A program made the position numbers and the translations under genes. From the sequence record PV340545: DNA of 50,981 nt, one strand, 5' to 3'. Numbering within the stretch: the first letter of the stretch is position 1; the number at the start of each line of letters is the position of its first letter. The stretch comes from Escherichia phage PhiR5_1. Positions 13,328-15,040 of the stretch are shown here, piece after piece. The notes under the pieces are model-generated. The model was given only the letters and a program-made list of their open reading frames with translations, was not told the origin of the DNA and did no database searches.

Positions 13328-13726
13328 TTATTTGTTCTGTTTTTTCTTGCGGGTTATTCTGATTTGTTTTGATTTGATTTTTTCTGACAAAAGTAGGGAA
13401 AAAATATGTCGCAAGTACTTTCTGTCTTTACCTCCTAAATTACATTCTCTATCAAATGTTGCCATAGTTATGACCCCAGTTTTATATAGTGTTTCAGCAA
13501 TTTTTCTGTAGTTTTTTTCTCGCAAAATTGAAGAGTTTTTCTTTGCTGTATTTTCAAGGCTATCTCCTTGTGGTTTAAGACTATTTGGGCCAAAAAACGT
13601 TGTGGATACTGCTGCACTTGTTGTCCGTTTTTTTTGGCCCATTTGGATAGTACTTGGGAGAGGCATGATTTTAATACGCATATAAATAACTCCTCTATCA
13701 ATTGGATTTTGGGAAAATGTTAACAT
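13328..13726 (-). CDS. Hypothetical protein in very AT-rich segment
   Basis: 132-aa Lys-rich ORF; could be non-coding AT-rich spacer. Confidence 0.25.
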   Translation of the reverse strand: MLTFSQNPIDRGVIYMRIKIMPLPSTIQMGQKKRTTSAAVSTTFFGPNSLKPQGDSLENTAKKNSSILREKNYRKIAETLYKTGVITMATFDRECNLGGKDRKYLRHIFSLLLSEKIKSKQIRITRKKKQNK

Positions 13727-14043
13727 TAATCATGATTAAGGAGTAATTTTAAATCTTCCAATAAAATTTGTTTAAACTCTTGTGTTCTATGATCGATATA
13801 CAACGCAAGTTTGCTTGCATTATCTTCCAGGTCACGTATCTCTCTGTCACCTCGAATAAACCCAACTAAATTTAAACGTTTAGATAGTTCAGAACTTCCT
13901 TCTATGGCATCTTGGAGTATTTGAATGATTTCTGAATTCATTGAGCGCCCGTTTCGTTTGGCTCGTTCAGCTATAGCTTCACGCATCCCATCGGGGAAAC
14001 GGAGGTTAAACTTATCGTAGTCTTTTACTTGTTTGTCAGCCAT
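13726..14043 (-). CDS. Ribbon-helix-helix repressor (Arc/Mnt family), Mnt-like
   Basis: RHH signature (FNLRFPDGMREAIAERAKRNGRSMNSEIIQIL); divergent from arc-like/ant pair. Confidence 0.7.
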   Translation of the reverse strand: MADKQVKDYDKFNLRFPDGMREAIAERAKRNGRSMNSEIIQILQDAIEGSSELSKRLNLVGFIRGDREIRDLEDNASKLALYIDHRTQEFKQILLEDLKLLLNHD

Positions 14044-14142
14044 TGGAACCCCCAAAAAAATGAATGGTGCCATATTGCCACATCAATTCAATGGTGGCAT
14101 TATGGCCTCATGGTGTCATTGTGGCCTCATGAGGTTATGTCA
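14044..14142. promoter_or_regulatory. Divergent promoter/operator region of immI-like module
   Basis: Three imperfect ~20-bp repeats ATGGTGNCAT..TGGCCTCAT between divergent RHH genes. Confidence 0.5.
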
Positions 14143-14301
14143 ATGGAAAAGAAAGAGGTAAAAATTACCCTTCGCTATCCGCAAAAAGTGAAGGATGAAT
14201 TCAAGCGAATTGCTCAGGAGGAAGGGATGTCTGAGAACGCAGCTATTGTTCAGGCGCTTGTATGGGCATTGAAATTTAGAGCACGGATACATGCTCGCTA
14301 G
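14143..14301 (+). CDS. Small ribbon-helix-helix protein, Arc-like
   Basis: 52 aa; RYPQKVKDEFKRIAQEEGMSENAAIVQAL fits RHH fold; directly upstream of antirepressor. Confidence 0.55.
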   Translation: MEKKEVKITLRYPQKVKDEFKRIAQEEGMSENAAIVQALVWALKFRARIHAR

Positions 14302-14371
14302 AAACAGCGAAGCCCCACTGGCGGCAACCTTAGGGGCTTCTATCGAAAATAACCGCGAAGGAAATATCGAC

Positions 14372-15040
14372 ATGAGTATTGTAGCAACATCAGATCTGAA
14401 CTTCCAAGGTGAAGCACTAGTGCCAGTGGCAAATATTGCCGGAATATGGCTAACTTCATCCAACCTAGCAAGAGCACTGAAGTATTCGAATAGTCGCGCA
14501 GTCACGATGATTTACAACAAATATGCTGACGAATTTTCCAGTAGTATGACTAGAGTGCTTGAAGTCAGTACCTCAGAGAATGATGTCGAGGTACTTGATC
14601 TGAGTACCTCGAAAAGTACTCGAAACTTGAAGAAGAAAGTACGTGTTTTCTCTCTCCGCGGAGCCCATTTGATCGCCATGTTCGCCCGCACTCCTGTAGC
14701 CAAAGAGTTCCGCCGTTGGGTTCTGGATATTCTCGATCGAGAAGTTCAACAATCCCCAATCATAAAACAATTCACTGATAACGAACTTTGCACACTTGCT
14801 TGGTTATGGCGAGCAGGGGATGTGATGTTAACCGCCTGCCAGAATGTTACTCCACTTCTTCAGGTTGCGGAGCACCGCGAAGCTGGTCGCTTTACTTCTA
14901 TCGGGCAAGAATATCCCCAGATACTACATAAGGCGCGCGAAATCCTTGCCAGAGAAACGGCACATGTAAAACTCCAGCCTTGGCAGGATAATAAGTGGAG
15001 CAGGGTGTTGCCATATTTCCGTCAGAATCTGTTGCAATAA
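14372..15040 (+). CDS. ant: Antirepressor (Bro-N/Ant-like)
   Basis: Positioned after arc-like gene as in P22 immI; N-terminal region Bro-N-like. Confidence 0.6.
   Translation: MSIVATSDLNFQGEALVPVANIAGIWLTSSNLARALKYSNSRAVTMIYNKYADEFSSSMTRVLEVSTSENDVEVLDLSTSKSTRNLKKKVRVFSLRGAHLIAMFARTPVAKEFRRWVLDILDREVQQSPIIKQFTDNELCTLAWLWRAGDVMLTACQNVTPLLQVAEHREAGRFTSIGQEYPQILHKAREILARETAHVKLQPWQDNKWSRVLPYFRQNLLQ

Follow-up and report, generated by a model that had tools for sequence, protein, structure and literature searches.

A divergent immI-type antirepressor cassette between ren and ninB in Escherichia phage PhiR5_1

Results

A P22 immI-type module at the ren-ninB junction

We analysed a DNA sequence of 50,981 nucleotides from Escherichia phage PhiR5_1 (record PV340545), referred to here in its full length as the window, and found between its ren and ninB genes a genuine, divergent cassette of the P22 immI type, in which an mnt-like gene faces away from an arc-like gene and an antirepressor-like gene, ant. 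Judged from sequence comparison, all five functional parts of P22 immI appear to have counterparts here, and we consider it likely that the cassette is a complete immI-type "ant moron", that is, a self-contained antirepressor control module. A first-pass annotation, made from the DNA letters, had placed an immI-like module between ren and the nin genes, with divergent ribbon-helix-helix (RHH) genes flanking a spacer and an antirepressor following the arc-like gene. This arrangement was borne out by our analysis: the cassette sits between ren (12955–13248; PHROG Ren-like, 1e-40) and ninB (15980–16435), the Mnt-like (13726–14043, minus strand) and Arc-like (14143–14301, plus strand) products both match Pfam Arc, and the open reading frame (ORF) ending at 15040 has Bro-N and P22_AR_C domains. 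The ninB product scored slightly below the Pfam NinB cut-off (23.2 against 23.8 bits), and its counterpart in an E. coli prophage copy with 97.7% identity bears the annotation "YbcN family protein". The further statement that the module mirrors P22 immI agreed with gene order and orientation, with the likeness of Mnt, Arc and the Ant C-terminus, with a strong predicted ant-type promoter embedded in repeats and with the position of a sar-type RNA. Two parts had been overlooked, namely the antisense RNA resembling sar and a terminator behind ant. P22 immI-type systems have been textbook knowledge since the 1970s–80s, the names mnt, arc and ant are already correct in the RefSeq automatic annotation, and a system of so well-known a kind is an unsurprising find. 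The module is immI-like rather than an immI orthologue in every part, as the operators, the Mnt C-terminus and the Ant N-terminus differ.

The ren-ninB interval holds two further, unrelated ORFs, at 13328–13681 (minus strand) and 15279–15785 (plus strand). GC content was 32–35% in the ORF beside mnt and in the 3′ half of mnt itself, 44–48% in arc and ant, and 50–57% in the backbone. A defence-system identity for the five ORFs of the interval was rejected, as PADLOC gave zero matches to them, and an Rfam match to BSnc120 at 13252–13329 (E = 6.4) was judged to be noise.

Divergent Mnt-like and Arc-like repressors

The Mnt-like gene (13726–14043, minus strand) encodes a protein of 105 amino acids with an N-terminal RHH domain, matched by Pfam Arc (PF03869) with E = 5e-20, and a helical C-terminal domain. 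In pairwise alignment with P22 Mnt it was 47% identical over 49 amino acids (P22 residues 2–50; E = 1e-14), with no likeness past residue 54, and its top sequence match in the PDB was 1MNT (1.7e-8). The RHH fold that had been assigned to these proteins was recovered in an AF2 monomer model of the Mnt-like protein (predicted local distance difference test, pLDDT, 78.8), which placed helices at residues 20–30, 35–64 and 75–101 and had AmrZ and Arc as its best fold matches. In P22 Mnt, the helical C-terminus serves oligomerisation (tetramerisation); the long predicted helices 35–64 and 75–101 of the present protein are compatible with a coiled-coil. From cassette to cassette, the Mnt-like proteins differ in their C-terminal domain, which is swapped for unrelated ones. 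The Mnt-like family comprises at least 503 protein clusters, and a scan with the Mnt-like protein of a collection holding one genome per species gave six loci.

The Arc-like gene (14143–14301, plus strand), the first gene of the ant operon, encodes 52 amino acids. Its product matched Pfam Arc with 22.6 bits (cut-off 20.4), was 36% identical to P22 Arc over 45 amino acids, and had Arc variants as its best PDB matches. NCBIfam gave RHH matches below threshold only. A reading of the RHH pair as toxin-antitoxin or partition proteins was rejected, as no toxin or ParA-type partner accompanies it and the antirepressor context is clear.

The antirepressor-like gene and its terminator

The ant gene (14372–15040, plus strand) encodes 222 amino acids, with a Bro-N domain in the N-terminal half (PF02498; 37.1 bits, 4.9e-9) followed by the P22 antirepressor C-terminal domain (Pfam P22_AR_C; 60.5 bits, 1.6e-16, cut-off 22.4). 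Residues 104–200 align with residues 177–273 of P22 Ant (E = 9e-6). PHROG "anti-repressor Ant" families match the protein, and among PHROG families of assigned function the best matches are antirepressors without exception. The ATG at 14372 is most likely the start codon, rather than that at 14291 of a RefSeq-style call, because it has the Shine-Dalgarno sequence AAGGAAAT and matches the mapped P22 start. The 14291 frame has no Shine-Dalgarno sequence and overlies the sar terminator. Its part upstream of the ant ATG (14291–14371), which reaches back to an ATG overlapping the arc stop codon, is open in six of eight loci and closed in P22 and in L015 (related loci carry L numbers here); a longer form starting at 14291 may be made, for example by coupling to arc translation. 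Behind ant, a terminator-like hairpin followed by six U residues lies at 15059–15098 on the plus strand (−18.6 kcal/mol, z = −2.3).

These domain data also bear on the possibility that the Bro-N/P22_AR_C protein is some other tightly regulated early protein that uses the immI circuit; examples would be an anti-defence protein, a regulator that binds DNA or a growth-interference factor of the Rha kind. Bro-N is widespread in proteins annotated with several different functions, depositors have annotated close relatives of this Ant as "Rha protein", no relative with a solved structure was found for it, and the N-terminal domain of Ant is swapped among cassettes (Bro-N, P22_AR_N, or extra ANT/KilAC genes). 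However, the P22_AR_C score lies far over its cut-off, an alignment to the C-terminus of P22 Ant is obtained, the best functional PHROG families are uniformly antirepressors, and the antirepressor control circuit is otherwise kept in all its parts, so that we regard this identity as improbable.

Three repeats overlap the predicted promoters of the spacer

The start codons of the mnt-like and arc-like genes are separated by a divergent control region of 99 bp (14044–14142), whose repeats are kept in related cassettes. Three imperfect repeats, which the first-pass annotation had placed at 14063–14131, were found here as copies of 18–19 bp within 14064–14128. R1 (ATGGTGCCATATTGCCACA, 14064–14082) overlaps the −35 element of the ant-type promoter, and its core is identical in L014, L002, L016 and L023. 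R2 (ATGGTGGCATTATGGCCTC, 14091–14109) overlaps the extended −10 element of the same promoter, and R3 (ATGGTGTCATTGTGGCCTC, 14110–14128), identical to R2 at 17 of 19 positions, spans the predicted start of the ant-operon transcript, from approximately +1 to +20. The best direct match within the spacer was 16/18 and the best inverted match 15/18, R1 being readable as an inverted copy. In 2000 dinucleotide-preserving shuffles of the spacer, the direct value was reached in two, the inverted value in 13 and both in none, and the repeat element was found nowhere else in the 51-kb window. The spacer repeats are thus non-random.

Consensus scans predicted a Pant-like promoter at 14075–14103 on the plus strand (TTGCCA, 17 bp, CATTAT, with an extended −10 TG), which is the sole good sigma-70 match in the spacer and has its −35 element in R1 and its −10 element in R2. 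This geometry is kept in L015 (TTGCTA, 17 bp, CATATT). On the minus strand, a candidate Pmnt-like promoter at 14072–14100 (ATGCCA, 17 bp, CAATAT) is the least certain part of the cassette; its hexamers are conserved in L015, a cassette with different repeats. LexA/SOS control of ant was rejected. A scan for the LexA box CTGT-N8-ACAG with at most one mismatch found none in 12686–20266, and control is taken to be of the Mnt/Arc type rather than the SOS type because there is no such box in 13700–15100. Two adjacent LexA-box-like sequences, CTGTGGTTATGTACAG and CTGTATGGATAACCAG, are present near the right end of the window at 50771–50815 (plus strand).

The repeat sequence tracks the N-terminus of the Mnt-like protein

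Thirteen cassettes were compared, namely those of the window, L001, L002, L014, L015, L016, L006, P22, L022–L025 and JEP4 (L007); the last has an ORF in the Arc-like position and ant, with a C2-type repressor gene in place of mnt. Cassettes whose Mnt-like protein begins with MA[DE]KQVKDYDKFNLRFP (window, L001, L014, L002, L016 and L023) have the repeat AATGGTG[GC]CATwwTGGCC (= AATGGTGSCATwwTGGCC), those with the same arm and the strand KFVVRFP (L015 and L024) have AATGATGGCATATTGCT, and those with the N-terminus M[ST]KYPSQxQDKFNLR (MSKYPSQMQDKF type; L006, L022 and L025) have AATGGTGTTAAATTAA. The Arc-like proteins fall into two types, KxTLRYP and NLRLP, each of which was seen with more than one repeat type. 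The comparison of these sequences therefore points to a repeat that follows the Mnt-like protein, in its N-terminal arm and beta-strand, rather than the type of Arc. A layout of three sites is preserved from type to type; the repeats are spaced by 27 and 19 bp in the window and, in SPN3UB, by 26 and 18 bp. Since it is the Mnt-like N-terminus that the repeat sequence goes with, we take the three sites to be probable operators of the Mnt-like protein, lying over the −35, −10 and +1 positions of the ant promoter. In established work, the operator specificity of Arc and Mnt has been assigned to their N-terminal residues, and the tracking seen here fits that work.

A predicted sar-like antisense RNA spans the arc-ant junction

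On the minus strand, a sar-like antisense RNA of about 72 nucleotides is predicted from approximately 14371 to 14300, with a 5′ hairpin, a terminator hairpin and a U-rich tail. It spans the arc stop to the ant start and is complementary to the ant ribosome-binding site. The full-length Rfam sar model (RF00262) matched at 14306–14370 (minus strand) with 34 bits and E = 3e-4; as controls, P22 scored 97.8 bits, SPN3UB 48 and other relatives 29–33. The 72-nucleotide RNA folds into two hairpins with a minimum free energy of −24.6 kcal/mol (z = −2.4), and the terminator stem is kept in eight of eight loci in the RNAalifold consensus, with six pairs changed on both sides. The Psar-like promoter (14407–14378, minus strand; TTGGAA, 18 bp, TACAAT, extended −10 TG) lies over ant codons 3–12, its −10 hexamer covering codons 3–4. 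The position of this hexamer relative to the ant ATG is the same in P22, L014, L006, L007, L015 and L002, and the −10 element, hairpin and T-run of sar are conserved in seven other cassettes. These features indicate that the window sar is a divergent homologue by anatomy; sar scores grade continuously across the family, and the window copy is sub-threshold for Rfam.

Codon and stem changes suggest a functional cassette

Codon differences between related copies bear on whether these genes are in use. In the N-terminal 46 codons of mnt, comparison with the Shiga toxin (Stx)-phage copy gave 14 synonymous and four nonsynonymous differences, and a second comparison of this domain gave 11 and three. 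The arc-like gene differs from that of L014 by five synonymous and two nonsynonymous changes, and in ant the two classes are about equal (44 and 42). Because synonymous differences equal or exceed nonsynonymous ones in all three, the comparison argues for the Mnt N-terminal domain, arc and ant being live genes. It is very improbable that the cassette is a relic, inactive and without current function, which recombination has carried along. The cassette is indeed rare among E. coli genomes (five of 5426 at ≥99% identity) and occurs in a degraded prophage, but its three ORFs are intact, as are the promoters, Shine-Dalgarno sequences, antisense RNA and terminators, synonymous changes outnumber nonsynonymous ones in the RHH domains, and the sar terminator stem shows compensatory changes.

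The cassette family is mobile and mosaic

Among 5426 complete E. coli genomes, five carried at least 80% of 13726–14400 at ≥99% identity and 14 more did so at 90–95%, while about 300 E. coli genomes, mostly Shiga toxin-producing E. coli (STEC), share the Mnt DNA-binding domain and R1–R3 alone, at about 85%. The ren-ninB junction holds the cassette in the window, in L014 and in L001. In the last (E. coli NZ_AP027748, 3700–6000), the cassette is 97.7% identical and belongs to a DLP12-like remnant that lies at tRNA-Arg, has a truncated ren and is devoid of cI, O and P. Further members of the family lie within the nin region in one Stx1a prophage, in the tail cluster of Stx phages, where genes L and K flank the cassette, and in other siphovirus tail regions. 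Because the family sits in tail clusters, in the nin region, between P22 genes 16 and 9 and between ren and ninB, the distribution of related sequences indicates that the cassette is a mobile "ant moron".

The breakpoints lie inside genes: identity to the Stx-phage copy stops at 13906, at about Mnt residue 46, and at about 14125. Across the Mnt-like repressors of L002, L014, L015, L006 and L022–L025, the DNA-binding domain of about 46 residues is near-identical and the recombination breakpoint falls at the domain boundary. Independent shuffling is also seen for the Arc type and for the N-terminal domain of Ant (Bro-N or P22_AR_N). PhiR26_1 (L005, 1183–4851), whose identity to the window begins mid-ant, has the defence gene PD-lambda-1, in antisense, between ren and ninB, together with an ant-like gene that no mnt, arc or sar accompanies; the C-terminal half of this ant-like gene is as in the window, and the segment upstream of ninB is duplicated. 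Since PhiR26_1 carries other morons at the same spot, the ren-ninB junction is a general landing site for morons.

A proposed circuit and the target of Ant

By analogy with P22, a weak leftward promoter would express the Mnt-like repressor in the lysogen, and its binding to the three repeats would keep arc and ant silent. When the DNA enters a cell free of Mnt, or when Mnt is lost, the ant-type promoter would fire and the Arc-like protein and Ant would be made; the Arc-like protein would then shut the promoter, limiting Ant to a burst. The sar-like RNA, whose promoter and complementarity to the ant ribosome-binding site are seen in the sequence, could pair with that site and limit translation, and would also restrain ant translation from transcripts reading through from the early right operon. 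Ant would bind CI-type repressors without cleaving them and so lift repression. Its targets could include the phage's own CI (9611–10300, a helix-turn-helix (HTH) domain and S24 peptidase), the repressors of other resident lambdoid prophages, or both, and Mnt would thereby be a second, independent immunity determinant. That Ant inactivates its own CI, giving a second immunity layer, is a reasonable inference from P22 genetics.

A different target is conceivable within the same circuit. Ant may act mainly in trans, as a means of prophage cross-talk or of competition between phages; its targets would be repressors made by other lambdoid prophages or by lysogens under superinfection, and this phage would gain no second immunity layer. 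Such an account overlaps with the explanation we favour and departs from it in the target alone. The same cassette, 97.7–99.7% identical, persists in a DLP12-like defective prophage lacking cI, O and P, phages of unrelated backbone have cassettes that agree with it in Mnt N-terminus and repeats, trans-acting antirepressors are documented for Gifsy and Fels prophages (PMC7380047), and PhiR26_1 combines an identical CI with an Ant that has the same C-terminal half and is free of mnt, arc and sar control. On the other hand, c2, the repressor of P22 itself, is among the targets of the P22 antirepressor, which acts on other repressors too (PMC7380047, PMC2629481), and targeting of the phage's own CI is compatible with the sequence. 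An action mainly in trans is thus possible, if somewhat unlikely.

Several observations weigh against a complete and functional immI-type module with a second immunity layer. The likeness of the Ant-like protein to P22 Ant is weak (22% identity over 99 amino acids), and Pfam gave no match to P22_AR_N (PF10547), a domain borne by other cassettes of the family, in its N-terminal half. The 34-bit sar match lies under the Rfam gathering score of 43, and the candidate leftward promoter matches the consensus weakly. The co-variation of repeat and Mnt-like N-terminus covers about three lineages, not many independent events, and the conservation of the repeats could partly reflect promoter function rather than repressor binding, because the promoter hexamers lie inside the repeats. 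When leader and spacer sequences were grouped by Arc type to find an operator for the Arc-like protein, no element segregated with that type. The binding and antirepressor steps are taken from homology, and the same cassette survives in the DLP12-like remnant without cI; because of this survival, the target of Ant need not be the resident repressor.

On the favoured account of an immI-type control module, a broader role can be imagined to which we give little credence, namely that the cassette serves as a portable, CI-independent induction switch. Loss of Mnt would free Ant against CI and at the same time start strong rightward transcription upstream of nin-Q, the swapped Mnt C-termini would be interchangeable input or partner domains tying cassettes to different signals, instead of serving oligomerisation only, and the triple operator would form a distinct cooperative switch unlike the single Omnt.

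The prophage and its neighbouring genes

The prophage gene set includes integrase, CI, Cro, a YdaT-like protein, O, P, ren, nin genes, Q, and head and tail genes, and the prophage looks complete. Three inducible coliphages, PhiR26_1, PhiR34_1 and Turner, have a CI 100% identical to its own (9611–10300). The low-GC ORF at 13328–13681 (minus strand), which follows immediately downstream of mnt, encodes 117 amino acids behind a strong Shine-Dalgarno sequence and may be co-transcribed with mnt. Searches of Pfam, PHROG, PADLOC and NCBIfam gave no match to its product, which belongs to a rare family (12 protein clusters) and has a basic N-terminus of 40 residues predicted to be disordered, followed by three helices. 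Its relatives occur without Mnt, in antisense orientation at the replication-nin junction of Hafnia prophages and beside int/xis in Enterobacter prophages. This ORF looks like an independent lysogen-expressed moron outside the cassette core.

After the ant terminator, the ORF at 15279–15785 (plus strand) encodes 168 amino acids with an N-terminal hydrophobic helix and matches PHROG 1779, a family of unknown function, with 6.5e-99. Lambdoid prophages of E. coli very commonly have the segment made up of this ORF and the DNA leading to ninB, and a counterpart of the ORF also follows the ant-like gene in PhiR26_1. Directly downstream of cI, at the position of lambda's rexAB, a HipA_2 kinase-like gene (8739–9491) and a DUF3037 gene (7915–8757), on the minus strand, may form a lysogen-expressed toxin or defence pair. 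A YdaT-like protein (PF06254; 10705–11244, plus strand) occupies the cII position between cro and O. Downstream of Q, a gene at 18846–20834 (plus strand) encodes a protein of 662 amino acids with DUF1737, sialic acid-specific acetylesterase (SASA) and DUF6645 domains. The SASA domain is similar to NanS-p-type esterases known from Stx-type prophages. No stx gene was noted in the window.

Discussion

The main points of this work are the unusual position of the cassette, a triple operator that appears to track the Mnt N-terminus, and extensive domain shuffling. If Ant works as in P22, lytic growth would be held by two independent locks, CI and Mnt, and the prophage could induce neighbouring lambdoid prophages, or be induced by them, without SOS. 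This would bear on cross-talk among E. coli prophages, including the Stx phages whose sister cassettes share the Mnt DNA-binding domain and operators. The correspondence between repeat and Mnt arm also offers a cheap, testable handle on specificity in a large family of RHH proteins.

Our literature search found no paper on an immI-type cassette at the ren-nin junction. The "ant moron" concept was developed for P22-like phages (Villafane et al. 2008, PMC2629481), phage L, which is without immI, has been discussed (PMC8022706), and the mnt-arc-ant locus of E. coli phage Kapi1 has been described (PMC12922286). In addition, ant genes are present in 126 of 279 Stx phages (PMC8136144), and antirepressor cross-talk between prophages has been reviewed (PMC7380047).

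The arrangement agrees with that of P22 immI in gene order and orientation. In both, mnt runs leftward and arc-ant rightward from a shared spacer, of 90 bp in P22 and 99 bp here, and the overlapping back-to-back Pant and Pmnt annotated in P22 are matched by a candidate pair arranged likewise. In P22, Psar and the sar 5′ end lie beside the ant ATG and sar ends at the arc stop, and the same geometry is predicted here; the hairpin with six U residues after ant stands where P22 has an annotated terminator. Arc has about 53 amino acids in P22 and 52 here, and sar has about 68 nucleotides in P22 and a predicted length of about 72 here. In contrast, P22 immI is located in the late operon of a podovirus, between genes 16 and 9, whereas the present cassette lies in the early right operon of a lambda-like siphovirus, between ren and ninB. 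P22 has one 17-bp Omnt and one 21-bp Oarc, in place of which three copies of 18–19 bp are found here, and comparison of the P22 Omnt and Oarc sequences with the spacer gave no similarity. The C-terminal domain of the Mnt-like protein is unrelated in sequence to that of P22 Mnt, and Ant has 222 amino acids with Bro-N here but 300 with P22_AR_N in P22.

Sister cassettes are present in Stx phages (phage 2851, Stx2a_WGPS8 and O157 prophages), in which the Mnt DNA-binding domain is near-identical and R1 and R2 are identical to those of the window. The Stx-phage copy shows 85% DNA identity to the window over 13906–14125, and its sar terminator hairpin differs by one compensatory change. These cassettes sit between tail genes L and K, and that of Salmonella phage SPN3UB among tail genes, whereas the window's is in the early right operon. 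The Stx-phage and SPN3UB cassettes also have the other Arc type (57 amino acids, NLRLP strand), another Mnt C-terminus and a different or longer Ant (334 amino acids in WGPS8). SPN3UB resembles the window in the spacing of its three repeats and differs in their sequence.

The "ant moron" of P22-like phages such as epsilon34 and Kapi1 is the same concept, a variable, independently expressed insertion, often of mnt, arc, sar and ant, in high genetic flux. It has been described between the late genes and the podovirus tailspike gene, and the window cassette instead occupies the replication-nin junction. LexA-controlled antirepressors, namely GfoA and GfhA of the Gifsy prophages, Ant of SPC32H and Tum of 186 (reviewed in PMC7380047), presumably reach the same end point, in which a CI-type repressor is inactivated by binding of a small protein and prophages may influence one another; no relationship in sequence to these proteins came to light, no comparison aimed at it having been made. 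They differ from the cassette of PhiR5_1 in their control, which here would involve RHH proteins and an antisense RNA with no LexA box.

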